A stretch of 64,000 nucleotides of DNA from a virus. Lineage: Duplodnaviria; Heunggongvirae; Uroviricota; Caudoviricetes. The notes under the pieces were generated by a model that worked only from the letters and a program-made list of their open reading frames with translations, had not been told where the DNA came from and did not search any database. The position numbers and the translations under genes are program-made. Below are positions 13,837 to 62,826 of the stretch, piece by piece. The number at the start of each line of letters is the position of its first letter. The first letter of the stretch is position 1. The DNA is taken from IMG/VR virus record IMGVR_UViG_2886837984_000001, positions 1-64,000 of that record; one strand, 5' to 3'.

Positions 13837-13896
13837 TTTCGTTCTTTATTTCTATATAAAATATACCATATCTAAATCAAAAAGTAAAGCGTCTTA

Positions 13897-13931
13897 GGGG
13901 TTGACACGAAATCAAAAAATATGGATAATAA
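13897..13931 (+). promoter_or_regulatory. Sigma-A-like promoter: TTGACA, a 17-nt spacer, then GATAAT. It lies upstream of the recombinase gene.
   Basis: GGTTGACACGAAATCAAAAAATATGGATAATAA. The spacer carries the recurring AAATCAAAAA box. Confidence 0.45.
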
Positions 13932-13968
13932 AGTTATCAACAACTAAGCATAAGGGAGCGGATCGACA

Positions 13969-14988
13969 ATGGAAGCCATCAAAACAGTAGCGTTGAACAC
14001 GACAAACATTCAGAGCAATATCCGATTGTTCTTAGATAAGAAGGGGCTCAACTCCGATCAGACACGACGGGCATATGAGCGAGATATCGAGGAGTTCTTC
14101 ATCTTCTCGAAGAACAAGGCTGTCTCCGGTCTATTGGAGTCAGACGTATCGTTCTCGCCGCAAGACGTCGACAAATATCTCGTCCATCTGTCGGAGAAAG
14201 GGACTGCCTCGTCCACGATCAATCGTAAAGTCGTCTCTGTACGCTCTCTGATGCGCTACCTTGACCGCTTGGACGGATATGACATCAACTTATCGGCGTT
14301 CGATACCGGCTCTGTGAAGGGCGCTCAGAACTCGTATGGGGTGCTCACGTATGAAGAGACGGAGATGATGGCGAGCCGTGTCCTGTCTCACCGTAACGGT
14401 CAGATGAAGGCCGCCCTCATTCGTTTGGCCGTGGTGACGAGTTTCCGCTTGGATTCGCTCTTGCGATTGACGAAGACGGACTTTATGAATCAGCGAGGCG
14501 TGTGGACGGTGACAACGGTGGGGAAGGGCGGAGAACGTGATACGAAGGCTATCCGTGACGAGTTGTACGAAGAGATCCGCATGATCATGATGTTTAAAGA
14601 GGACGATGAGCCGATCTTCAAATTGTCTCCTGGGACTGCGTTGAACATGGTTAAGGGTCTGTCTGAGGAGATGGGGGTTCCGAAAGAGCGCAATATCACG
14701 TTCCACTCGCTGAAGAAGGCCGGTGTGACAGAGGTGTGGGTGCAGACGGGGTACGACGCTATGAAGACGAAGAAACAGGGGGCGCACAAGAACTTCTCTA
14801 CGACAGAGCGGTACATCGAGAACAACGAAGACTTCTCGCAGTCACAGAGCCTCTTGATCGGAAAAGAGATTGACTTGTCTATGTTGGACGGGCTGTCTAA
14901 AGACGAACTGCTCGAGTTCATCAACGGCATGAACCGCAGCGTGAAGATGCAGATCAAAAATGAGATCAAGAAAAAAGGGATGGCGTAA
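13969..14988 (+). CDS. Tyrosine recombinase or integrase, XerD/phage-integrase family.
   Basis: N-terminal core-binding region TRRAYERDIEEF. Candidate catalytic R in VVTSFRLDSL. HSLKKAGVT. The C-terminal motif is GAHKNFSTTERY. Confidence 0.75.
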   Translation: MEAIKTVALNTTNIQSNIRLFLDKKGLNSDQTRRAYERDIEEFFIFSKNKAVSGLLESDVSFSPQDVDKYLVHLSEKGTASSTINRKVVSVRSLMRYLDRLDGYDINLSAFDTGSVKGAQNSYGVLTYEETEMMASRVLSHRNGQMKAALIRLAVVTSFRLDSLLRLTKTDFMNQRGVWTVTTVGKGGERDTKAIRDELYEEIRMIMMFKEDDEPIFKLSPGTALNMVKGLSEEMGVPKERNITFHSLKKAGVTEVWVQTGYDAMKTKKQGAHKNFSTTERYIENNEDFSQSQSLLIGKEIDLSMLDGLSKDELLEFINGMNRSVKMQIKNEIKKKGMA

Positions 14989-15004
14989 GCCGTCCCTTTT
15001 AGTA

Positions 15005-16369
15005 TTATACAGAGAAGTCGTACAGCTTGCCGAGCGCTGACTTCTTCTCGATTTTTCGTTTCATTCTCAAGTGAAGAGGCTTAGGATTCGAAAGGTAGAA
15101 TTTGTCTACGTTACCGATCACCTCGGAGTGTTTGCCGCTGATGACGTCTCGAAAGTACGCACCTTGCTTAAGGGAAGATGAATAAATTTCAGCAGCACTA
15201 GACCACTCCCCTCCCATCTCATTCACCTCTTCAAGCTTTGCGTCTTCTATTTTGAGAAAGTTGTTGAATTTGTCCGAAATCTTTTCAGATCGATTTTCGA
15301 TTGCAATCTTTTTGTTCTTCTGAAACGATTCAAGAATTTCTAGATACTCACCATCGCGCTTTTTGCCTGAGTAGTTTTCAATAAGCAGTTCGGCCGATTG
15401 TTTTGGGTCGCAAAACGGAAGAATTTTTTTCTTGATATATTTGATCACCGTCGGAGGCGTCGCCTTCATGTAGAAGCTTTGCTTTTTGTAGACGTATACG
15501 ACTTGACGAGGACATCCGTCTGGATCAGGGTCTAGTACCGTCTTCATAGCCTCTTCGATATCTTCTTTACATTTATCAATTTTTTCTGCCTTATGCTTGT
15601 TGTTGTATTTGATGTCGCTATATGTAAGGTCGTTATCTACAATCAATTTTCTTCTTGTTGACAGAACTTTCCCCATTTCTTCTGCGGTAATCGCCTGATG
15701 GATAGATCCGGTAGGTTCGTACTCGACGAACAATTCTCCGTTCTCATCAATGTACTGGACTTTTTCGTGCTTGATCACAAGCGCCCAATACTCATCTAAA
15801 CTGCCAATGATTTTTGATTTCAGTAGTCGGTTGAAAGACGACTCCATGTTTCTACGGACTGTGTCGTGGAAATCGATGTAATCACTAAACACCTTGTTTT
15901 GTCCTGCCTCGATCACGTTCTCGTCGATCAGATCGTCAATCTGCATCTTCTTATGAGATTCATCGAAACGGCTCAGATAGGCGTCGTGCATACTTCTCGT
16001 CGCAATACCCATCTCGACCATCCATGACGCTACGGTTCTAGGTCTAAACGCGCTTGGCGACTCAGTACCTTCAAGATACCCGATGATAGCCATATCTAAG
16101 TCGTAGCTATAAGGTACGCGCATATTACTCCCGTTAAGCATTCGGTCATCCTGTCTGTCGGAAACCTCGCTCTTTTTACCTGACAGTCGGTAACAAATAG
16201 ATCTTCCTTCTTTGACTCGTTCTACATTAGAGTAATGTTGTTCGAGCGTTTTGAATAAAGACTCCTCTACTCGTTTCGATGTAAATCGTCGATATTTATT
16301 GAAGTGATCTTTCTGAGGTTTAGTACCATACTCTTCTACGGCCTCTCTCTTAGATAGAACTTTAACCAT
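15005..16369 (-). CDS. Hypothetical protein, 454 aa.
   Basis: It is a long K-rich ORF with an RBS. It converges on the recombinase gene, and its start abuts the AT-rich palindromic region. Confidence 0.7.
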   Translation of the reverse strand: MVKVLSKREAVEEYGTKPQKDHFNKYRRFTSKRVEESLFKTLEQHYSNVERVKEGRSICYRLSGKKSEVSDRQDDRMLNGSNMRVPYSYDLDMAIIGYLEGTESPSAFRPRTVASWMVEMGIATRSMHDAYLSRFDESHKKMQIDDLIDENVIEAGQNKVFSDYIDFHDTVRRNMESSFNRLLKSKIIGSLDEYWALVIKHEKVQYIDENGELFVEYEPTGSIHQAITAEEMGKVLSTRRKLIVDNDLTYSDIKYNNKHKAEKIDKCKEDIEEAMKTVLDPDPDGCPRQVVYVYKKQSFYMKATPPTVIKYIKKKILPFCDPKQSAELLIENYSGKKRDGEYLEILESFQKNKKIAIENRSEKISDKFNNFLKIEDAKLEEVNEMGGEWSSAAEIYSSSLKQGAYFRDVISGKHSEVIGNVDKFYLSNPKPLHLRMKRKIEKKSALGKLYDFSV

Positions 16370-16436
16370 ACCCTCTCCACCTTTACTTAAATGTTAAATT
16401 AATGATAACATAAATACTTTTTTATTTCAATCTTCT

Positions 16437-16710: not shown

Positions 16711-16961
16711 ACTTAATTAATCAATACTCAAATAATCATAACCAGCGAAACGAACGTAGTGAGTGTAGCACCCGAACTCTTTTTCGTCAGAAAAAGATGA
16801 GGGGTACTCTCTTTATAATAAGAATCCGATAATATGAAGATTAATGATCGACTTGATTGATTGAAATCAAAAAGTATTATATAATATAGAGGTAGAGGAT
16901 TATTATCTATTATAGTAATCGATAGATAATAATCAATCATAATCGATAGGAGTGAAGGGTA

Positions 16962-17495
16962 TTGAGAGTAGCGTTGATCGGTAAGATGAGAAGCGGGAAG
17001 TCTACCATCGCAGATCTGTTAGAGGAGTATTTGGGATATCAGAAGTTGTCATTCGGAACTCGTCTGAAGCAGTTCGCTCATGAGGTATTCGATGTGGATA
17101 GCGATGTGAAGCCACGAAAGCTGTATCAGGATTTCGGTCAGAAGGCTCGAGAGATCGATCCAGACGTTTGGGTGAAATGGGTCGAGCGAGATATGGGAGA
17201 CAATCAGTTGGTTGTCATCGATGATCTTAGGCAGCCGAATGAGTATGAGTGGGCGAAACGAAACGGGTTCATCTTGTTTCATGTGAGATGTTCCGACGAG
17301 GTTCGGTTGATGAGAATGAAGAGCAAGGGTGAGGATGTCGATCCGAAGCTTTTGAATCACGAAACAGAACGACATATTGATGAATATACATATGATTACA
17401 TATTAGACGGCGAGGTATCACCGCTAGAAAGCTACCAGGCGATCAAGTGGCTAGAAGCATACGGCGATAGTTTGAGCGGTTTGAATTCTAAATAA
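16962..17495 (+). CDS. P-loop nucleotide or nucleoside-monophosphate kinase-like protein.
   Basis: TTG start with AGGAGTGAAGGGT upstream. Walker A GKMRSGKST. LVVIDDLRQPNE resembles Walker B. Confidence 0.6.
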   Translation: MRVALIGKMRSGKSTIADLLEEYLGYQKLSFGTRLKQFAHEVFDVDSDVKPRKLYQDFGQKAREIDPDVWVKWVERDMGDNQLVVIDDLRQPNEYEWAKRNGFILFHVRCSDEVRLMRMKSKGEDVDPKLLNHETERHIDEYTYDYILDGEVSPLESYQAIKWLEAYGDSLSGLNSK

Positions 17496-17516
17496 AAAAG
17501 TAAAGGATGATTAAAG

Positions 17517-17792
17517 ATGGCTTATCCAAAAGACGAACAAGAAACGGTGATCGTATATGAGGCAGAGACGGGGTTGTGGAGTTTCTACTCGACTCACCCG
17601 CCTCATATTCGTAAGTATAAGGAACTTTTGGTCGACGCGACGATGACTGAGGATCAATACGGTATCAACTCGATCCGAGGGAGAATCGAAGATGCGAATG
17701 TACGAATCTCTAAGAAGCGTGTCATGTCAGAGGAGCAACGTGCAGCCTTAGCAGAACGTATGCGTAAGATGCGAGAAGCGCAGAACACGTAA
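17517..17792 (+). CDS. Hypothetical protein.
   Basis: 91-aa ORF with an AAAGGATG RBS. Confidence 0.55.
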   Translation: MAYPKDEQETVIVYEAETGLWSFYSTHPPHIRKYKELLVDATMTEDQYGINSIRGRIEDANVRISKKRVMSEEQRAALAERMRKMREAQNT

Positions 17793-20226: not shown

Positions 20227-20717
20227 TGATGTGGTTAGCATTGTTGGTGGCATATGCGACGGGATTGACGGTGTATGCCGTATTCCTTTACTTAGACCTG
20301 GATGTTGTGACTGCTAGACTCGAGTCGAAACAAGAGAGATATGAGGAAGTTTTGGATGAGTTGTCGGAGTCCCGCTCCACTCTCCGAGACCTACAGGAAG
20401 AGTTGTATATCGCTCAGGCAGACTTAGAAGAAGCGAAAGAGGGAATCGGGGTATGGAAAGATCGGTATCTAGAGGCCGTCAATGCACATAGTTTGTTGGC
20501 AGACGAGCGAGAACAGTCCATCGGAGACCGTCATGACCTGGTGATTCTAGGAGATGACGATGTGTTTGTGGCTTACTATCACGGAGAGTTGGTGGTCGGT
20601 CAGAAGCGAATGAGCTTCAATGGATACGAGGATGATACATATCGGTTTGAAGTGACATTCGGGAACACCAAGGATGAAGGGAATGTGATTTACTTTGACG
20701 GTGGCGAGTATGAATAA
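20226..20717 (+). CDS. Hypothetical membrane-anchored protein.
   Basis: N-terminal TM segment and a coiled-coil region. Confidence 0.55.
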   Translation: MMWLALLVAYATGLTVYAVFLYLDLDVVTARLESKQERYEEVLDELSESRSTLRDLQEELYIAQADLEEAKEGIGVWKDRYLEAVNAHSLLADEREQSIGDRHDLVILGDDDVFVAYYHGELVVGQKRMSFNGYEDDTYRFEVTFGNTKDEGNVIYFDGGEYE

Positions 20718-21020
20718 TAGTTGGTTTCATATGAAACAAAACAGAGATTTAGCGAAAGACGCTTGACAATCGAAATCAAAAAGTATATATTGTAATTAAG
20801 AGGTAGCGGAAACTACCTAAAAATTCATATGAGAATATGAATGATGTACTAGTATCGTACATACGTTTCGTTTTTCATGAGACGACCGCTCACTCGTTGC
20901 CATCGATAGCGGTCTGATCATATGCCTCCCTAGAGGGGTGAAGAGAGGTGTGATTCCTTTCGGGCATACCATACATACCGGATGTTTTTGTGACATTCAT
21001 GATTTACCTCCTCCTTTCGG

Positions 21021-21057: not shown

Positions 21058-21148
21058 GATAAAAACACACCCCCCTCTCTAGATTAAATGAAAAAGTATT
21101 TTAATATTGGGAGATATAGGGTATGATAAGAGGGAGGAGGAGATGAAG

Positions 21149-21595
21149 ATGTTTTTGATGTATCTGATCGGGTTGGTGTTCTTCGGGGGATTCTTGCTGC
21201 TGATGGTAGGGTCTTTTGCTAATTATATGGATTATAAACAGGAGAGCGAGATGGGTGCGAGGTTGGGTGACACTTTGAACGGCCGTCCACCGGAGAGAGC
21301 GAAGCCTGTCGTGAAGGATTGGGTTCAGGGGTTGCGTAAGCTAGGGATTGAGATTGCGGATGTGGAGACGTATGAGAGTGAGTTGCGGAGGGATCTGAGA
21401 GAGTTGATGAATGTGACGCTGCCTGAGATCGCGAAGATGGATATCGGTTTGGAGATGAAGGTTGAATATGGGGGAGTGATCAGGAGGGAAGTTGATGCTG
21501 TGATCGAGAGAGCGAAGCGAGAGAAGACAGACCGAGTAAAATCAGAGATTGACTATTTGGTGGGATATGGGTTGGGTGAGAAGGCTAAAAAATGA
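21149..21595 (+). CDS. Hypothetical membrane protein.
   Basis: RBS GAGGGAGGAGGAG. The start is probably the ATG at 21149, which is spaced better than the earlier ATGs. It has an N-terminal TM helix. Confidence 0.55.
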   Translation: MFLMYLIGLVFFGGFLLLMVGSFANYMDYKQESEMGARLGDTLNGRPPERAKPVVKDWVQGLRKLGIEIADVETYESELRRDLRELMNVTLPEIAKMDIGLEMKVEYGGVIRREVDAVIERAKREKTDRVKSEIDYLVGYGLGEKAKK

Positions 21596-22503: not shown

Positions 22504-22672
22504 TTTTGTTTTCCTCCTTGTTTGTTGTACCCTTATTATCTCATCTGTCGAGATCTTTCCGCACTTTATTTTTATTTTTTTTATTTAATTAAAAAAGAGA
22601 AGAAAATAAATTTCTCCTCTCTCTTATATATGACATAGTTATAAACATACGTTCAAAATCCGTTTAACAGAT

Positions 22673-24426: not shown

Positions 24427-24680
24427 TTTGATTAGCTCCCTTTTTGATTTGGGTTATCTTGCTTAATTACATTATCGCACGTTTATATATTTAATTTTAT
24501 ATTATATTTTTTTATTTTAATAGCATTGATCGTAAACATTATTAAAAATTTAAATCATCTCGCTATAAAGTAATAGTATTAAACGTTTCTTCAATATCCG
24601 TTTAACAGATTTAGTATAACTAAAACTTGATAATTTTTGAACGTGATCACTCAACAAAAAAAGAATCCTTTCGGATTCTC

Positions 24681-25288: not shown

Positions 25289-25309
25289 ATGCGTACAATG
25301 TACGCGCAA
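25289..25309 (-). promoter_or_regulatory. Promoter with an embedded 15-bp inverted repeat GCGTACA-A-TGTACGC. On the minus strand it reads TTGCGC, 17 nt, then TATACT.
   Basis: It is one of four near-identical boxes. See also 31364, 31939 and 32623. Confidence 0.5.
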
Positions 25310-25397
25310 TACTTTTTTAATTAGCTATCATATTTATTTTACGATCACATAGGCCGATCACATAAAAAAAGCACTCAACCCGTCAACGGTCAAGCGC

Positions 25398-27436: not shown

Positions 27437-27919
27437 TTAATTGTTTTCACCGTCTTGTGTAAAATAAATCATATTTTCTAAATCCTCGCGAATCAAAATA
27501 ATTTCCTCATATGATCCACCGTCATCAATGTAATGGCCGTTATAAATTTTTTCTAATGCAGCTTGTAATTCTTTTTCCGTGTGATTTTCTACGTTTGTTG
27601 TGTATTCATAATAAAAATGATTAAAGTAACGGCCTAGCCCGTAAACTTCTTCATATTCATATTTAAAACCGTTGATTTCGTCCGAAAACTCAACTTTTAA
27701 TTCTTTATCAGCCTCGTTTAAATGGCCTTGTAAATTTTCAAGCGTGATCTTTTTGTGCGCTTGCTGGCGCTTGTTAAAAATATGATCATCTGCCTTGTTT
27801 TCGTCCCCGTTAAAAAAGATTCTCGCGAAATCATATTGACCGATTTGTTTGTACATCTTATCCAGCTCCCTTTGTTTGATGTGATTATTATACAGTTTGT
27901 AAGGCCGTTGACGCTTCAC
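27437..27919 (-). CDS. Hypothetical protein.
   Basis: 160-aa ORF. Confidence 0.55.
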   Translation of the reverse strand: MKRQRPYKLYNNHIKQRELDKMYKQIGQYDFARIFFNGDENKADDHIFNKRQQAHKKITLENLQGHLNEADKELKVEFSDEINGFKYEYEEVYGLGRYFNHFYYEYTTNVENHTEKELQAALEKIYNGHYIDDGGSYEEIILIREDLENMIYFTQDGENN

Positions 27920-28496
27920 TTTTTTGTACTAGCTTATAATCATATGGATTAAAACCGTGTTCTCGAATATACTCGCCTAACAACTTACGATTAACAAAAC
28001 TCAAACGACTTATTTCTTTTACTTCGTCCCACTGTTTAGCGATTGATAATTTTTCATCGTTCGATAAATTAGGATACATTTTATTGATTTTTTCAGTGGC
28101 GTATTTATTTAGCCGCTCGATTTCGCTCTTGTTTTCCGTCATTTCTTTAAAGTCCTCGATTGCAGCTGGCGACACTTCGCGATCACGTTTAAAGCCTTCG
28201 TATTTTCTTACTGACTTGTAACGGTCATCGGCTGGACGTAACGTGTAATAAGTTGTCGTTGCATATTTGTTTAAAATCGTTTCGTTTTGTTCGATGTGAT
28301 TAAGTGTCGGTACAACAAAACAAAATTCTTTTTTATTTCGTCCATAATATACGGCTGTTACTTCATCAACTTTGTTAGACACAAGGATAACGCTTGCTCT
28401 TTGTGTTTCGTGCATATCGTAAGGATATAAAGCATATTCTTTAGACGTTTCTTTAATTTTTGCTTTTTTAAACTCTGTAAATGTCATTCTTCTCAT
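27888..28496 (-). CDS. Hypothetical protein.
   Basis: The start is probably the ATG at 28496, which has AAAGGATGA upstream. Confidence 0.55.
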   Translation of the reverse strand: MRRMTFTEFKKAKIKETSKEYALYPYDMHETQRASVILVSNKVDEVTAVYYGRNKKEFCFVVPTLNHIEQNETILNKYATTTYYTLRPADDRYKSVRKYEGFKRDREVSPAAIEDFKEMTENKSEIERLNKYATEKINKMYPNLSNDEKLSIAKQWDEVKEISRLSFVNRKLLGEYIREHGFNPYDYKLVQKSEASTALQTV

Positions 28497-28527
28497 TTTA
28501 ATCATCCTTTTCGTTTTGATTTTTTGT

Positions 28528-29058
28528 TTAAAACTTTTCGAGCGATCCATGCGCGTTAAAACCCATCATAGTTAAGTGAGCATATTCTAAAACTTTTTCA
28601 TCGTTCCGGGATTCTTCAAAAATGTTATTTAGATGACTTTTAACCGCGAAACGAACCGCCTTTTGAATATCGCTTTCGAGCTCGTTGTAAGTCGTTCCGC
28701 TCTTTTTGGCAAAGTAAGCAGCTAGATAGTGATCTCCGAACGTGTCCCACGCTATTAAGCACTTAAAATCATCTTCTTTGTTGCGATTAATCGTATCGAC
28801 TAGATCGTTTTTATCTTCGTTGTCGAGACGGCTAAAATAATACGTATCTAAAACGATATGCGGTTGGTAACATGGTTTAACGTCATACTGTAAGATGTCC
28901 GTTTTAAAGGTTTTACAAAACGCTTTAATCGCTCGCTCAACGTCCCAACCCTGCCGATCGTTTAGGTGTTTTAAATACTTGTCTCTCGCTTGATTGATTG
29001 CACGTTTTCTAAAACGTCCGTGTAGCTCGTCAATTTCATACAGTGTAATCTGTCTCAT
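28528..29058 (-). CDS. Hypothetical protein.
   Basis: 176-aa ORF. Its ATG overlaps the stop of the upstream small ORF. Confidence 0.6.
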   Translation of the reverse strand: MRQITLYEIDELHGRFRKRAINQARDKYLKHLNDRQGWDVERAIKAFCKTFKTDILQYDVKPCYQPHIVLDTYYFSRLDNEDKNDLVDTINRNKEDDFKCLIAWDTFGDHYLAAYFAKKSGTTYNELESDIQKAVRFAVKSHLNNIFEESRNDEKVLEYAHLTMMGFNAHGSLEKF

Positions 29059-29908: not shown

Positions 29909-30340
29909 TTAATACTCTTCTTCTAACACTGATTTAATAGCGAGCTCCAAACCCTTTTTAAGATTCGGCCGCTCGTTAACGCTTGTCATTGATAAGTCTA
30001 GCGCTTGCAACGTGTCGCTTAAATCGTAAGTATAACTGTATTCATGATTTCCTAGTTCATAGCGAAACATCTCTAAAATGAAACCCTCTCCGGTTTGATC
30101 GGATTCAATAGCTGCCTTTAATTCTTGTTCCTGTCGCTCGAACATATTATCAAAATCCATTAAGCTATCTTTTTTAATAAATCCTCCATTGCCAATATCC
30201 AAAACCATGTTAGTTTGATCTTTTTCAAGTTCTAACTTTTTCATACCTTCGTCAAACTGTTTGTTTGAAAATGCGAACATGATAGGAAAGTCATTTAATT
30301 GTTTTTGGTGTCTATCCTTCATTTGCTTATAAGCGTTCAT
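29909..30340 (-). CDS. Hypothetical protein.
   Basis: 143-aa ORF. Confidence 0.55.
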   Translation of the reverse strand: MNAYKQMKDRHQKQLNDFPIMFAFSNKQFDEGMKKLELEKDQTNMVLDIGNGGFIKKDSLMDFDNMFERQEQELKAAIESDQTGEGFILEMFRYELGNHEYSYTYDLSDTLQALDLSMTSVNERPNLKKGLELAIKSVLEEEY

Positions 30341-30366
30341 TTTTGAAACCTCCTATATTTTTTTAT

Positions 30367-31104
30367 TTAAAAGAAAATTTTCATATTTTGCGATCCGGTT
30401 TTTTGCTTGTTCTGTTTCGCTTCATAACGATCAACCGTTTCCCATCGATACGTATTCATATTGTTGTATTCGATTGTGATAGCGTTGTCCATGTCGTCGC
30501 CATCTTCTTTTGTCATACGTGACCGCCATACTTTTTTGTATTTAGATTCATAAATGAGTTCGCACGTTTGACACTCTCCGATTGATTCTGTTAGTGTCTC
30601 AACCTCTTCTAAGCGTCGATCAATTTCAATGTATGGCCGGCCGTCTTCTGCTTTAGTTTCGGCCATGTAGTCGTGAATTTCGTTTAATAGCAGCGCTTTT
30701 AATTCTTCTTCGTTTTGGCCGAACAAGGTTTCTAACGTCCATGCTTTCCGGCCTTTTGGCGCTTCGCTCTTAAACTCTCGTTCTGTTACCTTTACATGGT
30801 AGCGCGTTTCTAACCCTGCATACACATAGCTTTCGGCACTCAATGAAAAGTATCGTGTTTTACCGTCAATCTGTTTAATAACGGTGCGCTCGTTGCTGTT
30901 ATGCGAATCAGTGAGCAGCGAGAACGTTTTAAACGCTTCGGCCTTTTCATGATCGGTATTGCTTGCCGTTGTCGTGCGAGCCGTTTCCCTAACCGTTTCA
31001 ATGGCCGTTAAAAGCTCGCTTTTATTCATTCTCGATCTACCTGCAATGTTCAATTCTTTCGCGAGTGAGTAAAGTTCTTTTTGTGTTTTGTCAGTGATGT
31101 TCAT
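30367..31104 (-). CDS. Hypothetical protein with an N-terminal SAP/Rho-N-like helix pair.
   Basis: ELYSLAKELNIAGRSRMNKSELLTAI motif. Confidence 0.55.
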   Translation of the reverse strand: MNITDKTQKELYSLAKELNIAGRSRMNKSELLTAIETVRETARTTTASNTDHEKAEAFKTFSLLTDSHNSNERTVIKQIDGKTRYFSLSAESYVYAGLETRYHVKVTEREFKSEAPKGRKAWTLETLFGQNEEELKALLLNEIHDYMAETKAEDGRPYIEIDRRLEEVETLTESIGECQTCELIYESKYKKVWRSRMTKEDGDDMDNAITIEYNNMNTYRWETVDRYEAKQNKQKTGSQNMKIFF

Positions 31105-31363: not shown

Positions 31364-31383
31364 AAGCGTACATTGTACGCAAG
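31364..31383 (-). promoter_or_regulatory. Promoter with an embedded palindrome, AAGCGTACATTGTACGCAAG on the plus strand. On the minus strand it reads TTGCGT, 17 nt, then TAAACT.
   Basis: It is one of four near-identical boxes. Confidence 0.5.
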
Positions 31384-31413
31384 ACTTTAAATAAAAGTTT
31401 TTATTTTTTTATT

Positions 31414-31521
31414 TAGATGATGATAAACCCTTGTACGATCCACTGGATGACGATGATTGCAAAACCTGCAACGGCCATACCGGACAAGATCAAATAGTTT
31501 ACGTTGTCTCTCTTTTCCATG
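31414..31521 (-). CDS. Small membrane peptide, 35 aa.
   Basis: RBS TTGGAGGTATGAGAC. The sequence YLILSGMAVAGFAIIVIQWIVQGFIII is hydrophobic. Confidence 0.4.
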
Positions 31522-31938: not shown

Positions 31939-31958
31939 AAGCGTACATTGTACGCAAG
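31939..31958 (-). promoter_or_regulatory. Promoter with an embedded palindrome, AAGCGTACATTGTACGCAAG. On the minus strand it reads TTGCGT, 17 nt, then TATATT.
   Basis: It is one of four near-identical boxes. It lies 60 nt upstream of the 31876 gene start. Confidence 0.55.
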
Positions 31959-32379
31959 TGTTTTTTAAAATTAATTCTTTTTTATTTCGTTATGACGGGT
32001 TTCTTCTATTAAATAGCGTTTAAAATATACGGTGCTAAATCGGCCATTCGGATTATATACGGACGTGATTGATCCGTTTGGATGGTTTGGCCGTGTTTAA
32101 ATACGATCTATCTTTTTAATACGGCCAAAACATAACGAGCGCTAGCGAGCGATCTAATAGATCGTGATAGGGTAGTCCGTCCTGCTGCATGATCGGCCGT
32201 TGATCGGCCTAGCGATCTATCTTTCTTCCTGGCGTTCGATCCGTCCGGCCTTCGCTGGCGACGCGATCCGCCGCGAGCTCGCAGAGCTCCGCTCCTCGTG
32301 TCGGCGTCGTCAACCTAATAAGGGCGATGCAGACGTTTGTCCAAAAACCGTATAACAGCAAAGTCTTATATAAACCCTG

Positions 32380-32580
32380 TTATTTGTGAGTTTTGCGCGG
32401 TGTAATTTGATCCTTCAGACAATCGATAGTTGTCGTCTTCCAGAGTGGGCGGCCTTTATACGTATATGCGTCGGGCTCCGGCATATTATTTTGTGTGACA
32501 CGGTTCGAGATGGTGCTCCGCGAGATCTCTAGATAATCTGCAACTTCAGTGGTCGTTAAAAGAACTGTTTTATGGGTCAT
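32380..32580 (-). CDS. HTH DNA-binding protein of the excisionase or MerR-like HTH_17 type.
   Basis: The start is probably the ATG at 32580, which has CAAGGAGGCG upstream. HTH motif TTTEVADYLEISRSTISNRV. Confidence 0.6.
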   Translation of the reverse strand: MTHKTVLLTTTEVADYLEISRSTISNRVTQNNMPEPDAYTYKGRPLWKTTTIDCLKDQITPRKTHK

Positions 32581-32622
32581 AATTGACGCCTCCTTGAGTG
32601 GTTTGTAACTAAATAGTAACAC

Positions 32623-32642
32623 AAGCGTACATCATACGCAAG
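32623..32642 (-). promoter_or_regulatory. Degenerate copy of the palindromic promoter box, AAGCGTACATCATACGCAAG. On the minus strand it reads TTGCGT, 17 nt, then TACTAT.
   Basis: It lies upstream of the HTH gene. Confidence 0.45.
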
Positions 32643-33816: not shown

Positions 33817-34143
33817 GGTGTTACCTCGCTTTCTAAATCAAAAAGTAGCGGTTGTTTAATTTATATGTTCCACGGGAACATAATTTGAAACATTATTTTT
33901 TTAATATGCTCACATTTCTTATATATTCTGTGATAGAGTAGAGTTATAGAACGTAGTATAATAATACTATAATGTATTAATACATTAACTTTATACCCCT
34001 ATGGGTAAAAAAGTATGTCTGTCCCAACGATTTTTTCATTTCCCAAGTTTTTAAGTTTGCTAAAGTGTACAGGTTTTGTGTAAGTTTTTATCAGATAGTT
34101 TATACAAATTATTCCTAAATCAAAAAAATAATACAATTAAGAG

Positions 34144-35370
34144 GTGGAGACGATGGTGAACGAAGATCTAACCCCGCAACGTTTAGCAGAAGTATTGCAA
34201 GATTTTCTGTACGAAAACCGTTATGATCATGATTTATTTAATGATTTACAAAAGAATTTGAAAAAACATGAAATATTTTCTAAAGATATTACAGATATTA
34301 TGAATAAAAGAACAGATTTCAAAGATATTCCTGCCACCGAGCTCGTGTTGTTTGCGCGGATTGTGTACGGCCGCTTTCCCGACTTCGAGATCATCAATCC
34401 GCAACGCTATTTCAAGCCAGGAGAGATCAAGGCGGCGCAATATTATACCCGCAACAATCGTCCTGAGTATATCAAACTTCCTTTGACAGTGAACAACGCA
34501 TTAAGCGTCCAGTACGACGAGTATATCGCCATCATGTCGGCCAAACAGCTCGTCAAGATGTTGGATAGCAGCATTGTCACCTACAACTTCGACTCACAGC
34601 GCGACGCGAAGAGCATGGTGGACACGAACGGAAGAATCGTGAGAGCGATCAACGTCAACCAAAAGTCGGTCATCGAGATCGCGCAACTGATGTTGAACGG
34701 AGAATATCTCCCCGATATGCTGACATTTAATATGTTGTTAGGTTCTAATGACGAAAGAGAAGAGTTTTCCTCTAAAGGAAACAGTATTGTCGTCAACGAA
34801 GGGACTCAGCTCGACATCTTGGACGGATTCCATCGTCTGTCTGCCATGCAGCAAGCGGTCGAAGCGAATCCAGAATTCGACTTAAACTTCCCTGTCGCCT
34901 TTAAAAACTTTGATATCCAAAAAGCGAAGCGCTATGTCGGTCAAACGAACACGTTTAACGTCATGCCTAAGGCGTATGTCGAGCAACTGAGAGCCAAAGA
35001 CCACTACGCATACATCGTCAACGAGCTCATCAACAACAGCGACCTGAAGGGGCGTGTGGGGTATCAGCGACGCCCAATCTTCGACAACGGAGAGATCACT
35101 ACGTTCGACCGTCTAAAGAATGCCATTCAGAAACAGTATAACGTCAAGATGAAACGAGAAGCGATGGGTGTGGTGGAGACACTTGTCCCGTTGTTCGATG
35201 AATTGATTTTCCTATACCTATCAGAGAAACCTGATCCACATGAAACATTGTTTGCTACGGTCGACGGGATAGATCGATTGTTAAATAAATATAAAAAGAT
35301 TGATAAAGATATAAAACGTGTCGATTTAGATTTCTTATTAGCCACAACAGAAAAAGGACAATTATTATGA
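34144..35370 (+). CDS. ParB/Srx-fold (ParB N-terminal domain-like) nuclease-domain protein.
   Basis: The LDILDGFHRLSAM motif is of the DGxHR type. 408 aa. RBS AAGAGGTGGAG. Confidence 0.5.
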   Translation: METMVNEDLTPQRLAEVLQDFLYENRYDHDLFNDLQKNLKKHEIFSKDITDIMNKRTDFKDIPATELVLFARIVYGRFPDFEIINPQRYFKPGEIKAAQYYTRNNRPEYIKLPLTVNNALSVQYDEYIAIMSAKQLVKMLDSSIVTYNFDSQRDAKSMVDTNGRIVRAINVNQKSVIEIAQLMLNGEYLPDMLTFNMLLGSNDEREEFSSKGNSIVVNEGTQLDILDGFHRLSAMQQAVEANPEFDLNFPVAFKNFDIQKAKRYVGQTNTFNVMPKAYVEQLRAKDHYAYIVNELINNSDLKGRVGYQRRPIFDNGEITTFDRLKNAIQKQYNVKMKREAMGVVETLVPLFDELIFLYLSEKPDPHETLFATVDGIDRLLNKYKKIDKDIKRVDLDFLLATTEKGQLL

Positions 35371-36431
35371 CAAACTTAGAGAATTTTGAAACCAATAAGC
35401 AAAAATTATTAGATGATGACCTATTTTATAATGCAGAATATAAATTAGATTTCTTAGACAAACATAAAACCAAAACACAGGATTTTAATTTTTACTATCG
35501 ATTATTTATCAACGTAAAAGAAAAAGAAGAAAGCCTTGGTCGTGATATGTACGACTTCTCTCGTCGTGATATCGAGGATGTCGTGTCGGGGATGCACCCG
35601 TCGACCTCTTCTGCTGCCGCCAAAATCATCGCAATGATCAAGCGATACCTGACTCACGCGGCACAAGACGGCGAAAAGAGTTCAAATATCGTTCACCAGG
35701 TAGGCAAATTGACAGATATGGCGAATAGTTTTCTTCCTAGTAATCCGAAATTCTATGTGTCAGAAGCAGAATTACAATTATTAGAAGATAGCTGTATGAA
35801 TCCGCAGGACGCATTTATCTTCCGGGCGATCTTCGAAGGGGTTTTGGGGGCTGAGATGACCGAGCTACGCAACCTAAAGATGAGCGATATCGATATCCAT
35901 CAAAATTTAGTCTCAATCAATATAGCTGATTACAACAAGAACCGGACAATCCGAGTGACAGAGCGATTTATTGATATGGCCGTAAAAGCATATGAACAGA
36001 AAGTATATATATTAAATAATGGCGAAGACGTCAGCGAGAACTTCATGCGCGCAAACACAGAATACGAGTTAGAAGATTCGGGATACATTATGAAGAAGTC
36101 GCATATTGGACGTATGATCAAGGATGCTCCGATTACGACGCCGACGCTATACAAACGATTTAATAACATCAAGGCGTTTCAATCATTCGAGACGATCGAT
36201 AAATATTACTTGAAATTCAACAACATTTATAAGAGCGGTGCGATCTGGTATGGGGCTCGTTATATAGAAGAAAAGCAGATAGCAATCAAGAAACTGACGG
36301 ACGATCATATGAAAGAGGTGGCTCGCCACGTCAAGAACGTCTATCAAGATCTCCCGGTAGATATCAAGAAGATCGTGAACGTTGAGAATATCGAAGAGTT
36401 ATATGTGGAAAAAGGGAAGATTATTTCGTAA
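35367..36431 (+). CDS. Hypothetical protein.
   Basis: 354-aa ORF, coupled to its neighbour. A weak tyrosine-recombinase-like box (LGAEMTELRNLKMSDID) lacks the catalytic Arg, so no product call is made. Confidence 0.55.
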   Translation: MTNLENFETNKQKLLDDDLFYNAEYKLDFLDKHKTKTQDFNFYYRLFINVKEKEESLGRDMYDFSRRDIEDVVSGMHPSTSSAAAKIIAMIKRYLTHAAQDGEKSSNIVHQVGKLTDMANSFLPSNPKFYVSEAELQLLEDSCMNPQDAFIFRAIFEGVLGAEMTELRNLKMSDIDIHQNLVSINIADYNKNRTIRVTERFIDMAVKAYEQKVYILNNGEDVSENFMRANTEYELEDSGYIMKKSHIGRMIKDAPITTPTLYKRFNNIKAFQSFETIDKYYLKFNNIYKSGAIWYGARYIEEKQIAIKKLTDDHMKEVARHVKNVYQDLPVDIKKIVNVENIEELYVEKGKIIS

Positions 36432-36541
36432 GAGGGGAGCAATCCTCTCTTTTTAATTTATTTTAAGCCAGATGCTTGACGTACTAAATCAAAAAGTATA
36501 GTATAGAGAATGTAAGAACAATACATAACACGAAGGAGTGA

Positions 36542-37531: not shown

Positions 37532-37631
37532 GAAGAAATCGAATTAAAAAAGTAATACATAAAAAACGCCGGAAAGCGTTTATCGACAGAGGACACATCA
37601 ACATTTTCATTTTAAAGAAAATGGTGATTAC

Positions 37632-38678: not shown

Positions 38679-38927
38679 TCAGGTTAAGAAAATAAGAACG
38701 AACGTTCGTGTTGAGGAAAAAATGGCTATAAAACACTATAAATTATAGTTTTTACCCGTCATTTTCCTCAACTAAACCTTTTTACCCAAAAATATCTAAA
38801 GAAAGTCATACAATATTCCTAAATTATCTAGATTATTTGCCAATTAAGAGGTATTATAAATAGGTGATATAAGAATACGTATGCAATCAAAATGTTTTTA
38901 TAATTAAGAAAACGGGGGATTCAACAC

Positions 38928-39278
38928 TTGAACGATACATTCTCAACATCCAACCTACGCAGCACAAGCCCGTTCCAAAGCCTACAACGAGACGCTGTCG
39001 AAGCGAAAGCTCAGATCAGGCACTACAAACAACATGAGAACTTCATTGGAATGGTATTGTCAGATAGCACACTCGAAGAAAAAGTGACACACTTGTTCGT
39101 CAAGAAGGCTTCAAAAGGCCACATTGACAAACTCCTGGATATCATTTCAAAGATGACACATGACGAGATGTACGAGACGTATGTCGAACACATGGAGTAC
39201 GTCGGAGACCTTCCAGGTTTGGCGCGACTGTTTACATACCGAAAGGTGACAACGGATTTCAATTTTGCAAATGGTTGA
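38928..39278 (+). CDS. Hypothetical protein.
   Basis: TTG start with ACGGGGGA upstream. Confidence 0.4.
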   Translation: MNDTFSTSNLRSTSPFQSLQRDAVEAKAQIRHYKQHENFIGMVLSDSTLEEKVTHLFVKKASKGHIDKLLDIISKMTHDEMYETYVEHMEYVGDLPGLARLFTYRKVTTDFNFANG

Positions 39279-39372: not shown

Positions 39373-39726
39373 ATGAAAAAACAAATCAAAGGAACGGTGA
39401 TCGGAGTTACACTCGTTATCGCATCGATAGGTTTCACCTATAACTTTAACGAAATCAAAAAGTATAATTCAGAAATAGACGCGGTGGTACATAAAAACGA
39501 CTCATTGACGGCTACACTCGACAAACGAGAGTCAGATCTGGCGCTCACCGAGCTCGAGGTGTCTGAACTAAAACTCGCTCTCGAAGCCGAGATTCAAGAG
39601 AAGGCAGACCTTTCGGAGCAATACAAGCAAACCAAAGACAAGCATAGGCGGTCTGAGGAAGAGGTTAAGTCCTTAAAAAAGACATTGGCATTGTTGAACA
39701 ACGAATTAAAGAGCAAGAGCGAGTAA
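39373..39726 (+). CDS. Hypothetical membrane-anchored coiled-coil protein.
   Basis: TM helix followed by a coiled coil. Confidence 0.55.
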   Translation: MKKQIKGTVIGVTLVIASIGFTYNFNEIKKYNSEIDAVVHKNDSLTATLDKRESDLALTELEVSELKLALEAEIQEKADLSEQYKQTKDKHRRSEEEVKSLKKTLALLNNELKSKSE

Positions 39727-45284: not shown

Positions 45285-45784
45285 GTGACGACAAGGTATT
45301 GAAGTGGGACAAGACATGGATGAACTTTGCTATCGATATGGCTGATACACATTCGAAATGCGCTTCTCATCGAGTGGCATGTGTGCTAGTCAAAGACGAT
45401 AAGCCGATCTCGATCGGTGTGAACGGGACGATCCCAGGCGCTACGAACTGCAACGAAATCTTCTCAAAAGTGGACGGTGTTTGGCATACGAAGGTCACGA
45501 TGACGGATGACTTATATCGCTGCGATGATCAACTGGCGCACCACAAATGGTCAAAAGAGAACGAGATTCACGCAGAAATCAACGCTTTGGCAAAGGTAGC
45601 GAAGTCGCATGAAAGTTGTGACGGGGCGACGGCCTACGTGACGCTGAGTCCATGTCGGTCGTGCGCGCTTGCGATGATCGCGTCGGGGATCAAGCGGGTC
45701 GTGTATCTGAATACATATGATAAGAGCGATAGTTTCGAACTTTTCCGTCAAGCAGGGGTCGAACTGAAAAAGTTAAATATCTAA
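45281..45784 (+). CDS. dCMP deaminase, zinc-dependent.
   Basis: HAEINAL and SPCRSCA zinc-binding motifs. Confidence 0.85.
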   Translation: MSDDKVLKWDKTWMNFAIDMADTHSKCASHRVACVLVKDDKPISIGVNGTIPGATNCNEIFSKVDGVWHTKVTMTDDLYRCDDQLAHHKWSKENEIHAEINALAKVAKSHESCDGATAYVTLSPCRSCALAMIASGIKRVVYLNTYDKSDSFELFRQAGVELKKLNI

Positions 45785-45886
45785 TTAAAAAAGTATTGTG
45801 TTATGTATTGCGAAGTGCTATTCTTGGATTAGGGAGTTAATTCCCAACAAGGATGGCACTTTTTTAAATCGAAAGGATGGAAGAAG

Positions 45887-47005: not shown

Positions 47006-47047
47006 ATCTAAATAAAAAAGTATTTTAATTAAAAGGGGTAGATTGAG

Positions 47048-50082: not shown

Positions 50083-50769
50083 ATGGATTGGCCTACTGAA
50101 GAAGATTATTATGACGATTATAGCGAGTTCGATGCCCAGGTGAACGACCTCAAAGAAAGTTTGAAAAAGGCAGTCAAACAAGAACATGTTGATGAGATGA
50201 ATCGAATTAAAAAAGAAAATGAAGAGTTGCAAGAGGTTAAGAAGAACTTCGAGGCAATCAAAGAAGATTACGCTCGAAAAGAGCGAGAGTTAGAATACGA
50301 ACGTAAGGGTTTGCTCGCTAAAGTTCGTCAAGAACGCTTAACAGAATTGCTCAAGGGTAGCGAGGTCATTATGTTTAAAGCAGCAACAACATATGTCGAC
50401 GCGCCCAAATGCGATCAGTGTGACGACTATCGATATATTCACTTTGAGTCGCCGTCAGGTAGAAAAATGACAGAGAAATGTTCTTGTAAAGATAGTACGA
50501 AGATGTATGTTGCAGAAAAAATTGTAAGAACTGAGTTCAAAGCAGACAACCATCGTTCAGTCCTGTGGTATAAACCTTATCGAGACAATGGAAACGTAAT
50601 GGTGCTCGACGAGCAGTTGTCGTCAGATGCTTACGACAAAGTATTTAAGCATGGTGACTCTTTTGCTAAGTTGGATCGATATCGAACCATCTTTAACTTA
50701 GAAGAAGACTGTTTAGAGTATTGCAAATTTCTTCAAAAGAAAGACGAAGAAGAGAGTAGTAACCAATAA
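50083..50769 (+). CDS. Hypothetical protein with a coiled-coil N-terminus and a Cys-rich central region.
   Basis: RBS TAGGAGGAATG. CDQCDD...CSCKD. Confidence 0.55.
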   Translation: MDWPTEEDYYDDYSEFDAQVNDLKESLKKAVKQEHVDEMNRIKKENEELQEVKKNFEAIKEDYARKERELEYERKGLLAKVRQERLTELLKGSEVIMFKAATTYVDAPKCDQCDDYRYIHFESPSGRKMTEKCSCKDSTKMYVAEKIVRTEFKADNHRSVLWYKPYRDNGNVMVLDEQLSSDAYDKVFKHGDSFAKLDRYRTIFNLEEDCLEYCKFLQKKDEEESSNQ

Positions 50770-52974: not shown

Positions 52975-53059
52975 TATCTAATTAAAAAAGTATTATTATT
53001 TGGTGGTGTTGTGTGTTACTATAAACATGTAGCATCACCAATTTTTAGGAGGAATACAT

Positions 53060-56737: not shown

Positions 56738-57148
56738 GTAGATTGATTCGAGTATATTGAAAACATAAAAATACAGAGGAGCGATGACGATGAAGGTGGC
56801 GGATAAAGAGTCGTATATGAAAGACGAAATTCGGCGTATGATTCAGGAGAGCGATGATCTCGCTTGGCAGCGCCAGCAAAACTAAAGAAGAAGCTCTAGA
56901 TGACAGAGCTATCGATGCTGTGTACGGGTATTTCATCAAAGATCAGAGCGGAGATACGCTCGAACAGTTCACGAAAAGCTTCTTCGGACTATGATCAGAC
57001 AGGCTGCCAATAGGCGGCCTTTTGTATGATTAAAAATAAATAAAGAAAAGTGTTGTATATCTAATTAAAAAAGTATAGAATCAAATTAGGAAGTAAGAAG
57101 TACATATCTAATCAAATTGACGTTTTATCACACAGAGGAGGAATTGAA

Positions 57149-60245: not shown

Positions 60246-60279
60246 AATTTAGATTTGATTAGAGAGAGGAGAAATCTTT

Positions 60280-60654: not shown

Positions 60655-60668
60655 GAGGATTGATACAT

Positions 60669-60875
60669 ATGAACACATTTAAGTTTACGCTAAAGCCTAC
60701 ATTGAAGTTTAAAGCAATCGAAAAGATTGAAGACATTTCTGCTGCTATCGAACACGGAGAATGCTTCTATGACGATGACGCTATGGAAGAAGTTGAAGAC
60801 CAAATTTCTGACCTCCTAAAACTAATGAAAAAAGTACGAGAAGAAAATCGCCTAATGGACGAAGAGGAGGATTGA
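60669..60875 (+). CDS. Hypothetical small protein.
   Basis: RBS ATAGGAGGATTGATACAT. The same 19-nt context precedes the next gene. Confidence 0.5.
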   Translation: MNTFKFTLKPTLKFKAIEKIEDISAAIEHGECFYDDDAMEEVEDQISDLLKLMKKVREENRLMDEEED

Positions 60876-60880
60876 TACAT

Positions 60881-61864: not shown

Positions 61865-61973
61865 AACTTTCATTTGATTACTTAATCAATTACAAAAGTA
61901 TTTTAATAGATATATACACACTCTCCCTTTGATGATATAATTAAGTCAAATATTAACAAGGGAGAGTTTTTAT

Positions 61974-62516
61974 ATGAAAAAAATGCTAGTTATTCTAGGT
62001 ATTTTGATTATTGTTGGGGCAGGGATTGGTTATACAATGATTTCTGGCTCTGCGAGCTCCGAAATACCAGCGGATCGATATGGTAAGTTTGAGACATTTG
62101 AGGCTGATGACCGCGAACTGATAGAGTATGTGATCGAGTATAATAAATTCAACGAAGAATTAAAGACTCTAGATTTAACATATGCTTTCATTTTAGGTTC
62201 TGACGACAAACTGAATCAATACGAACTAGCAATGTCTTACGTCGAGCTCTACACAGAACTCCAGGGAAAGATCTATATCTTCAACAAAAATAACAAGGTT
62301 CCATCTGAATATAAGACCCTACACGAATCATTGATCAAAGAAATCGGAATCGCAGATTTGATCACAGAAGAGTACGAAGATGCGATCGAGAACGAAGATT
62401 TCTCTAAACTAGAAGAATTAATGAAAATCTCTAGCGATGCTCGTAAAGATGGGTTGGCGTCGACAGATCGTATAGAATATTTTGAAGATGTGAATGAATT
62501 CATCCTTAAAAACTGA
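61974..62516 (+). CDS. Hypothetical membrane-anchored protein.
   Basis: RBS CAAGGGAGAG. N-terminal TM helix. Confidence 0.55.
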   Translation: MKKMLVILGILIIVGAGIGYTMISGSASSEIPADRYGKFETFEADDRELIEYVIEYNKFNEELKTLDLTYAFILGSDDKLNQYELAMSYVELYTELQGKIYIFNKNNKVPSEYKTLHESLIKEIGIADLITEEYEDAIENEDFSKLEELMKISSDARKDGLASTDRIEYFEDVNEFILKN

Positions 62517-62542
62517 GACCTAAATGGTCTCTTTTTTGTCAC
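62512..62542 (+). terminator. Rho-independent terminator.
   Basis: GAGACC taaat GGTCTC followed by TTTTTTGT. Confidence 0.6.
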
Positions 62543-62628
62543 AAGAATGAATTAAAAAAGTATTGTTGCTTATTATCATGTGTGCTACAATAAGGTTGTG
62601 CAATAAAATATCTATTTTGGGAGGGATT

Positions 62629-62784
62629 ATGATGACAAAAGTGGTCTGTTTGACGGAATTTAGAGGCAGAAAGTTGGCCAGAGACCATAAAGAGCGTGAG
62701 TATCTGACAAATCTGACGCGAGAAGTCTTACATATGATTCAAAAAGAGATGCCAAAGCGAGACAATCCGACCGCAAGTGTTTGA
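62629..62784 (+). CDS. Hypothetical small protein, 51 aa.
   Basis: RBS TTGGGAGGGATT. Confidence 0.45.
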   Translation: MMTKVVCLTEFRGRKLARDHKEREYLTNLTREVLHMIQKEMPKRDNPTASV

Positions 62785-62826
62785 TTGAAACGCCGTCTAA
62801 ATAAAAAAGTATAGGAGATGTTTTAT

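Follow-up and report, generated by a model that had tools for sequence, protein, structure and literature searches.

A repeated, gene-co-oriented A-rich box in an SPbeta-like phage of Exiguobacterium and the integrase-fold master repressor that probably reads it

The 64,000-nt window analysed here (positions 1 to 64,000 of IMG/VR virus record IMGVR_UViG_2886837984_000001) comes from Exiguobacterium sp. SH5S4 and, as judged by Pfam and PHROG scans and by gene order, belongs to an SPbeta-like phage. Two of its features are considered together: a short A-rich motif that recurs along the window, and a gene encoding an integrase-fold master repressor of the MrpR/YopR/SroF type (35367-36431, plus strand; 354 aa), which is proposed to bind it. 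The Pfam and PHROG matches also include a RecD2-like helicase, PhoH, a deoxynucleoside monophosphate (dNMP) kinase and a tyrosine recombinase. Directly upstream of the repressor gene, and overlapping its start, lies a DndB-like gene (34144-35370, plus strand), the counterpart of SPbeta yopQ (sroE); Pfam DndB matches both the window protein and SPbeta YopQ. The DndB-like gene and the gene for the protein with the MrpR_N_CB domain are followed by genes for an AAA_24 (Sak4-like) protein, a DnaB-like helicase, a primase and a RecJ-like exonuclease, which is the order of SPbeta yopQ-yopR ... yorF-yorG-yorH-yorI-yorJ-yorK. In a related, syntenic Logan contig (L004; 123,423 bp) precomputed YorF and Phage_SPbeta_YorH matches fall on the corresponding genes, and the pair of DndB-like and MrpR-like genes recurs there, in sequence L007 and in Geobacillus virus E3 (GVE3). 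Two window segments searched by megablast against INPHARED had no relative among its phages at the DNA level, and tRNA and Rfam scans of the window were empty.

Scanning both strands of the window with the pattern CTAAATMAAAAAGTAT at no more than two mismatches returned 22 matches where 0.18 were expected, and none of 100 dinucleotide-preserving shuffles reached 22. A position weight matrix (PWM) derived from these 22 copies found 30 sites at a score of at least 14, against 0.5 expected from simulated sequence. An unbiased, strand-specific count of 9-mers in the window, compared with a third-order Markov expectation, placed AAAAAGTAT, CAAAAAGTA, TAAAAAAGT and AAATCAAAA among the most over-represented words. 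The 16-base consensus is approximately WT-C-K-AAAT-M-AAAAA-GTAT-W; the informative core spans about 18-20 bp, from some 2 nt before the C to 1-2 nt past GTAT, and is non-palindromic. The box density of the window is 3.4 per 10 kb. These counts bear out a preliminary description of the same stretch, which had reported about 16 plus-strand copies and considered them either a promoter class or a shared regulator site. Thirteen of its 16 coordinates lie within about 12 nt of a site with at most two mismatches (13872, 13907, 16862, 17488, 20771, 21084, 33833, 36484, 45781, 47008, 52978, 57061 and 62797), two more correspond to three-mismatch copies that the PWM recovered (37540, CGAATTAAAAAAGTAA; 62548, TGAATTAAAAAAGTAT), and at the last, near 34113 (CTAAATCAAAAAAATA), a copy is present that is degenerate and falls below threshold.

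The copies are concentrated between genes: 23 of the 30 sites are intergenic even though the coding fraction is 0.795 (p ~7e-11). The restriction to the plus strand was wrong: the motif follows gene orientation on both strands. When the window was split into transcription blocks, 29 of the 30 sites were co-oriented with the local genes; this number includes 13872, assigned by hand as co-oriented with the plus-strand gene at 13969, and the only anti-oriented match is a doubtful copy at 22585 (+). At least eight copies lie on the minus strand (9748, 11480, 16414, 25309, 28325, 30355, 31401 and 31974), all within or ahead of minus-strand genes, and two of these fall outside the interval covered before; two plus-strand copies, 39450 and 50203, are also additional. 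Weaker minus-strand copies occur at 24504-24519, a low-complexity candidate with a score of 18.0, and at 25045; 39276, 54825 and 34113 are further weak candidates on the plus strand. The motif marks early, replication and nucleotide-metabolism operons and overlaps several strong sigma-A-type promoters, and positions 1-9700, which hold terminase-like, packaging and other late-type genes, carry no copy.

Relative to sigma-A-like promoter hexamers the copies (named by their first position) take several placements. Four fill the spacer between -35 and -10: CGAAATCAAAAAATAT at 13907-13922 (+), between TTGACA (13901-13906) and GATAAT (13924-13929); CGAAATCAAAAAGTAT at 20771-20786 (+), between TTGACA (20763-20768) and TATATT (20786-20791); CTAAATCAAAAAGTAT at 36484-36499 (+), between TTGACG (36476) and TAGTAT (36499-36504); and CTAATTAAAAAAGTAT at 57061-57076 (+), between TTGTAT and TAGAAT. 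The 36484 copy stands past the terminator that ends the repressor operon (36429-36455) and ahead of the yorF-like replication operon. Two copies overlap a -35: TGAAATAAAAAAGTAT at 16414-16429 (-), on a TTGAAA with a 17-nt spacer and a TATCAT -10, before 15005-16369; and TGAAATCAAAAAGTAT at 16862-16877 (+), in a TTGATT / TATAAT promoter before the dNMP-kinase-like gene at 16962. Three abut one: CTAATTAAAAAAGTAT at 25309-25324 (-), next to the TTGCGC of a promoter with a palindromic operator; CTAATTAAAAAAGTAT again at 45781-45796 (+), next to TTGTGT, with a 17-nt spacer and TATTCT; and TGAATTAAAAAAGTAT at 62548-62563 (+), next to TTGTTG, with a 17-nt spacer and the extended -10 TGTGcTACAAT. Two others precede the -35 of palindrome-operator promoters, CTAAATAAAAAAATAA at 31401-31416 (-) by 18 nt and CGAAATAAAAAAGAAT at 31974-31989 (-) by 16 nt. 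A further CTAATTAAAAAAGTAT copy, at 52978-52993 (+), lies in a promoter-like site (TTAATA / TATTAT) before gene 53060.

Four copies end 0-3 nt before a ribosome-binding site (RBS): CGAAATCAAAAAGTAT at 11480-11495 (-), in the last codons of the RecD2-like gene and followed by the RBS AAGGGAG and the ATG of 11258-11461; CTAAATAAAAAAGTAA at 17488-17503 (+), with an RBS directly after it and the ATG at 17517; TTAAATAAAAAAATAT at 30355-30370 (-), followed directly by AGGAGG and then the ATG of 29909-30340; and CTAAATAAAAAAGTAT at 62797-62812 (+), followed directly by the RBS AGGAGA. Three are intragenic: CGAAATAAAAAAGAAT at 28325-28340 (-) within 27888-28550, CGAAATCAAAAAGTAT at 39450-39465 (+) within 39373-39726, and CGAATTAAAAAAGAAA at 50203-50218 (+; PWM score 20.7) within 50083-50769. 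The other copies are TTAAATAAAAAAGTAA at 9748-9763 (-), intergenic and ahead of minus-strand genes; CTAAATCAAAAAGTAA at 13872-13887 (+), in the divergent intergenic region before the tyrosine-recombinase gene at 13969; TTAAATGAAAAAGTAT at 21084-21099 (+), just before gene 21107-21595; CTAAATCAAAAAGTAG at 33833-33848 (+), at the start of a plus-strand block and upstream of the sroE/sroF-like genes; CGAATTAAAAAAGTAA at 37540-37555 (+), between the yorF-like and yorG-like (AAA_24) genes; and CTAAATAAAAAAGTAT at 47008-47023 (+), 24 nt before gene 47048.

At the sequence level, sigma-A hexamers thus flank or overlap the box at 13907, 16414, 16862, 20771, 36484, 57061, 25309, 45781 and 62548, and other copies lack a recognisable promoter. 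Counted from the motif start, the -35 lies at -8, -6, -5, -1, +15 or still further downstream, and the distance from motif end to start codon runs from about 7 nt to several hundred. The TTGAC(A/G) that had been described before many copies is clear at three only (13907, 20771 and 36484); weaker TTGnnn hexamers stand at 16862, 16414 and 57061, and elsewhere the -35 follows the motif or the motif abuts an RBS. A generic scan for sigma-70 promoters and terminators gave no overall enrichment (34 found against 34.9 expected). With so variable a distance to the sigma-A-like hexamers, and with several copies at an RBS or inside genes, the motif is best regarded as a separate binding site and not as a fixed piece of a promoter core. 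Of the two possibilities raised in the preliminary description, the evidence therefore favours the regulator site over the promoter class, and the association with promoters is nonetheless real.

The same geometry bears on the alternative that the motif defines a promoter class read by a phage sigma-like or other transcription factor, or by a phage RNA polymerase whose gene lies beyond the window, with GTAT(A/T) forming part of a -10-like element. A long, non-palindromic and strictly gene-co-directional motif would suit such a class; GTAT often runs into A/T-rich, -10-like sequence (TATAAT at 39450, TATAGT at 36484, TATTAT at 16862 and 52978), and the window encodes a 483-aa protein (9823-11274, minus strand), annotated 'sigma factor', with a region-4-like helix-turn-helix (HTH) and a zinc ribbon. 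Where the RBS begins 0-3 nt past the motif (17488, 30355, 62797 and 11480), however, a transcription start 6-8 nt past a GTAT-based -10 would fall beyond the RBS. The distance to the sigma-A hexamers is widely variable, no fixed geometry to transcript or gene start is apparent, and late genes, the expected targets of a phage sigma factor, carry no motif. Known phage promoter classes such as SPO1 gp28 middle promoters and T4 late promoters (TATAAATA) resemble the window motif in being repeated, oriented and upstream of phage genes; they differ in keeping a fixed distance to the start and in replacing host hexamers, whereas the window motif floats with respect to both hexamers and RBS. GVE3, moreover, encodes an ortholog of the sigma-like protein and lacks the motif, and the analogous elements of SPbeta and phi3T are experimentally repressor boxes, so that we regard a promoter class as quite unlikely. 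A promoter of a T7-like single-subunit RNA polymerase, a long asymmetric motif whose end falls just short of the transcript, was also considered and rejected: the window encodes no such polymerase, and the homologous elements are repressor boxes.

That several copies lie inside or just upstream of sigma-A-like promoters, and are A-rich as UP elements are, would also be expected if a sigma-A promoter cassette had been duplicated and the motif were its shared part, either an A-tract spacer or a UP-like stretch, with no dedicated binder. Conservation is limited to a 16-20-bp core, around which the -35 and -10 vary in sequence and register; there are copies beside an RBS or inside genes with no recognisable promoter; the core is kept across phages whose flanks have diverged; and the generic promoter scan was unenriched. 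A duplicated cassette is accordingly very unlikely. The RBS-adjacent subset raises the further possibility of an RNA-level element, a signal in 5' untranslated regions or between cistrons such as the site of a translational regulator or nuclease: through their co-orientation nearly all copies would be transcribed as the A-rich strand, and several stand immediately 5' of a Shine-Dalgarno sequence. Copies in the spacer of a first promoter, such as 36484 past its terminator and 13907 in a divergent region, would nevertheless lie outside the transcript of that operon, Rfam returned no match, and the homologous system acts on double-stranded DNA. An RNA element is the least probable of these proposals, and we consider it most unlikely, although such a role is conceivable for the copies beside an RBS.

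The candidate reader of the motif is the product of 35367-36431. This protein matches Pfam MrpR_N_CB above cutoff (8e-16); its MrpR_C_cat match (18.5 bits) is below cutoff, yet PF22823 is precomputed for the identical protein P0001. It is 100% identical to an Exiguobacterium sp. SH5S4 protein whose UniRef name is 'phage lytic cycle repressor'. Full-length phmmer matches were obtained to phi3T SroF (9rd5, with DNA, and 9rgl; 4.8e-16) and MrpR (8a0a; 2.6e-10), with YopR (8bj6, 8bjv) also matched, and BLASTP against phi3T SroF gave 26% identity over the full length (E 3e-21). An AlphaFold2 model built from a shallow alignment is of moderate confidence (predicted local distance difference test, pLDDT, 66.8). 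Its top seven Foldseek matches are all SroF, YopR or MrpR (probability 1.0), ahead of Xer and integron recombinases, with template modelling (TM) scores of about 0.3, low values that we attribute to domain orientation and to the moderate model. By tblastn, homologs of 26-30% identity occur in phi3T/SPbeta, Geobacillus virus E3, an Alicyclobacillus phage, Brevibacillus phage Sundance and large B. anthracis siphoviruses; a search for relatives with the repressor protein in genome-contig and viral-contig collections found nothing.

Aligned with SPbeta MrpR on the catalytic columns of Table 3 of PMC10516654 (~20% identity, the columns near the C-terminus being uncertain), the protein has lost the recombinase catalytic residues: Arg I is replaced by V/L, Lys by D, His by N, Arg II by Y/K, His/Trp by V and the Tyr nucleophile by I, and Glu alone is kept. 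Gly136 of wild-type MrpR is retained in the window protein and its relatives. The c2 mutant of SPbeta owes its heat-sensitive repressor to G136E (Kohm et al. 2023, PMC10516654), and the yopR gene of the SPBc2 record (L001 31280-32257) encodes Glu136 (FEEVSG), that is, the heat-sensitive c2 allele. Among the residues with which phi3T SroF is reported to read bases, Y26, F234 and K304 are identical here, and K233 is replaced by R, R238 by K and H237 by I, a pattern that, at the sequence level, fits a conserved binding mode with changed specificity.

For two members of this family the DNA target has been described. The SPbeta repeated element (SPBRE) has been known since 1999 (Lazarevic 1999, as cited in PMC10516654). 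MrpR binds DNA as a monomer and has the fold of a tyrosine recombinase; its peaks in chromatin affinity precipitation sequencing (ChAP-seq) lie at ten SPbeta promoters, all with the 15-bp SPBRE, and it shifts SPBRE DNA in electrophoretic mobility shift assays and represses PaimR and PyosX about five-fold (PMC10516654). The structure of phi3T SroF was solved on the 26-bp box CAGTAATTTTATTTTTATTCTTAATG (9RD5; Chmielowska et al. 2025, bioRxiv 10.1101/2025.11.27.690993): a single monomer closes around the duplex with its two domains and reads 24 of the 26 bp, with two consecutive A-tracts at the centre, and SroF is released by Sar, a LexA-controlled, DNA-mimicking antirepressor (bioRxiv 10.1101/2025.11.27.690993).

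The placements seen in the window recur in both phages when SPBRE copies are extracted from the SPBc2 record and phi3T boxes from KY030782. The SPbeta element aCAAAtAcAAAaAATATGtATA fills spacers, as in TAGACA-AATACAAATAATATGTA-TATAAT (yonP, yorZ, yosX and yorE), lies upstream of the -35 at aimR and yonX, and stands directly before the RBS at yopM, yopV and a second yonX copy. The phi3T box ttaAGAATAAAAATAAAAT shows the same three placements, with ...AAAATTACTATTGACG at a yorE-like promoter, where it abuts or lies upstream of the -35, ...AAAATTAAAAAGGAGAATTTTGATG before a gene, and a copy before an RBS at phi3T 33419; TAGACAAATACAAATAATATGTATATAAT is a further spacer-embedded example in the SPbeta/phi3T set. 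In both phages the neighbouring genes have the A-rich strand as their sense strand. The window motif and SPBRE are thus alike in being non-palindromic, A-rich, 15-20 bp long, repeated over early regions, co-oriented with genes and found in three placement classes, in syntenic phages in which the integrase-fold repressor gene follows a DndB-like gene. They differ in sequence (aCAAAtAcAAAaAATATGtATA in SPbeta, CKAAATMAAAAAGTAT in the window), in repressors that are only ~20-26% identical, and in host, Exiguobacterium as opposed to Bacillus; counted in the same way, the boxes number 1.2-1.8 per 10 kb in SPbeta and 3.4 in the window. They differ also in that no arbitrium genes were recognised within the window, where the sole candidate tested, 15005-16369 as AimR, was rejected for having no similarity to AimR and no PDB match. 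The phi3T box (Phi3TRE) is bound by the closest solved homolog, SroF, and shares with the window motif an asymmetric form with consecutive A-tracts, the AATAAAAA core on the sense strand, the placement classes and a comparable density (6.1 per 10 kb in phi3T). The two diverge at the flanking specificity positions (AGAAT...AAAATTAC in phi3T, CTAAAT...GTAT in the window) and in extent, the conserved core of the window motif being ~18-20 bp as judged from sequence against 24 bp read in the phi3T crystal.

No Sar homolog was detectable in the window by BLASTP of the one candidate open reading frame (ORF), the 116-aa ORF 38928-39278 (+). An unusually long gap of 250 nt precedes this ORF and holds a Cheo (LexA) box-like site, AGAACGAACGTTCGT, at 38694-38708. 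In position and size the ORF recalls phi3T Sar, the LexA-controlled antirepressor, to which it has no BLASTP similarity.

Related phages show that the box is conserved with its repressor and changes with repressor lineage. The repressor of L004 is 76% identical to that of the window, and the 21-kb L004 locus holds eight motif copies at no more than two mismatches against 0.05 expected. In pairwise alignments of orthologous intergenic sites the box is kept and the flanks have diverged (window 33833 / L004 8521; window 36484 / L004 11114). Further L004 counterparts are found for 25309 (at 628), 31974 (at 6067), 37540 (at 12180) and 45781 (at 20400); a copy similar to 28325 lies at 3263, and 39450 matches 14076, where conservation is not separable from coding constraint. 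In two short metagenomic contigs (L005 and L006) with repressors 61% identical to that of the window, the promoter after the repressor gene reads gcTTGACTatCGAAATATAAAAGTATAATAT, and the box, as CGAAATATAAAAGTAT, the counterpart of 36484, keeps its place in the spacer and shows one or two changes. The repressors of phi3T, SPbeta, GVE3 and Brevibacillus are 26-31% identical to the window protein; the window box is absent from the phi3T and Brevibacillus prophage loci and has 0-2 chance-level matches in the SPbeta and GVE3 loci. Conversely, at no more than two mismatches the SPbeta box has two matches in the window and the phi3T box one, although each box is present at 1-6 copies per 10 kb in its own phage. 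The sequence of the box thus follows the lineage of the repressor. A search for an equivalent box in Geobacillus virus E3 and a Brevibacillus gelatini prophage, both with repressors ~30% identical, yielded no clear repeat embedded in spacers; all that appeared were strong sigma-A promoters preceded by an AT-rich stretch, so that this argument from co-variation rests on three lineages. Beside SPBRE copies, the right-hand third of SPbeta (SPBc2, NC_001884 100001-134416) contains six to seven copies of a phi3T-type box, AGAATAAAAATAAAAT, at no more than one to two mismatches, which may be a trace of recombination among SPbeta-like phages or a second box type.

A regulator site is favoured because the phage encodes an MrpR/SroF-type repressor and because the SPbeta and phi3T boxes share the anatomy of the window motif. 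It is therefore likely that the motif is the counterpart of SPBRE and Phi3TRE, an operator box for the SroF/MrpR/YopR-type master repressor that 35367-36431 encodes; we infer that the repressor binds it and represses the promoters that carry it. During lysogeny, a monomer of the catalytically dead protein would clamp each asymmetric A-tract box with its core-binding (CB) and catalytic (CAT) domains. RNA polymerase would be kept from those sigma-A-type early promoters that hold a box in the spacer or have one against or across the -35, and boxes before an RBS or inside operons would probably add to repression or act as roadblocks. In this way early, replication and nucleotide-metabolism operons would be silenced on both strands, leaving late genes unmarked, and induction would require removal of the repressor, which in SPbeta and phi3T is accomplished by a LexA-controlled antirepressor.

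Several observations weigh against this assignment. Protein and motif are linked by homology at 26% identity and by anatomical analogy, and the structure model is moderate (pLDDT 66.8, TM ~0.3). The box differs from both SPBRE and Phi3TRE, with the AATAAAAA A-tract core alone common to it and phi3T, and is therefore a distinct box and not the same element. Copies in genes (28325, 39450 and 50203) or against an RBS stand where simple promoter occlusion is inapplicable, and near-perfect co-orientation is not obviously needed by a monomeric DNA-binding repressor and fits a promoter- or RNA-level element too. The 483-aa 'sigma factor'-annotated protein, finally, is a second candidate transcription factor in the window. 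Co-orientation is shared by SPbeta, phi3T and the window phage, in all of which boxes almost always follow transcription and a subset lies 0-3 nt before Shine-Dalgarno sequences or inside genes; the publications consulted explain neither feature. It is conceivable, if unlikely, that SroF-type boxes have a polar function (an orientation-dependent roadblock or anti-roadblock for RNA polymerase) or a second role in mRNA. Apart from this, the window phage would place an SroF system beyond the Bacillus arbitrium phages, in Exiguobacterium, perhaps one that works without arbitrium and with an unrelated LexA-controlled antirepressor at 38928-39278.

SPBRE has been known since 1999 and its binder since 2023, and the structural mechanism dates from 2025; the window reveals no new kind of mechanism. 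It adds a third distinct box sequence and an Exiguobacterium host for the system of integrase-fold monomeric repressor and repeated box, a naturally occurring specificity variant with which to study the reading of long A-tract boxes by SroF-type clamps, and a map of ~25-30 candidate early-gene control sites in an uncharacterised 121-kb phage.

A second operator is also present. Four minus-strand promoters (-35 TTGCGT) have their spacer occupied by the palindrome GCGTACAATGTACGC, at 25291-25307, 31366-31382, 31941-31957 and 32625-32641, with seven strand-hits against 0.15 expected; in three of these promoters the A-rich box is also present just upstream. An 80-aa HTH (CI-like/HTH_17) gene at 32380-32622 (-) directly follows the fourth copy, which suggests that this gene encodes an autoregulated dimeric repressor; the arrangement resembles SPbeta yopS and the 'palindrome' features annotated in NC_001884.

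The 483-aa protein matches phrog_5767, 'sigma factor', at 4e-59; its HTH is a weak region-4/LuxR-type match (residues ~381-420) and the zinc ribbon is C-terminal. Orthologs occur in Geobacillus virus E3, in Staphylococcus and Mammaliicoccus SPbeta-like phages and in phiCD211, and tblastn found no match in B. subtilis SPbeta or phi3T; the protein may be a late-gene regulator. At the left end of the window, a terminase-large-subunit-like ORF matches phrog_2 over profile positions 330-589 only and a LAGLIDADG homing-endonuclease gene adjoins it [493-1908(-), 2176-3036(-)]; given the partial match and the adjoining gene, the terminase gene may be interrupted by an intron, intein or homing element. 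Other enriched plus-strand 9-mers are scattered over the window: CAAACCCTT(T) (6 observed against 0.28 expected), AAAAGTGAC, ATACATATGA and TCGAGCTCG. At 121,308 bp and 123,423 bp, the source contig and the related Logan contig each have about the length of an SPbeta-like genome, and either may represent an entire phage genome that was assembled separately from the chromosome.

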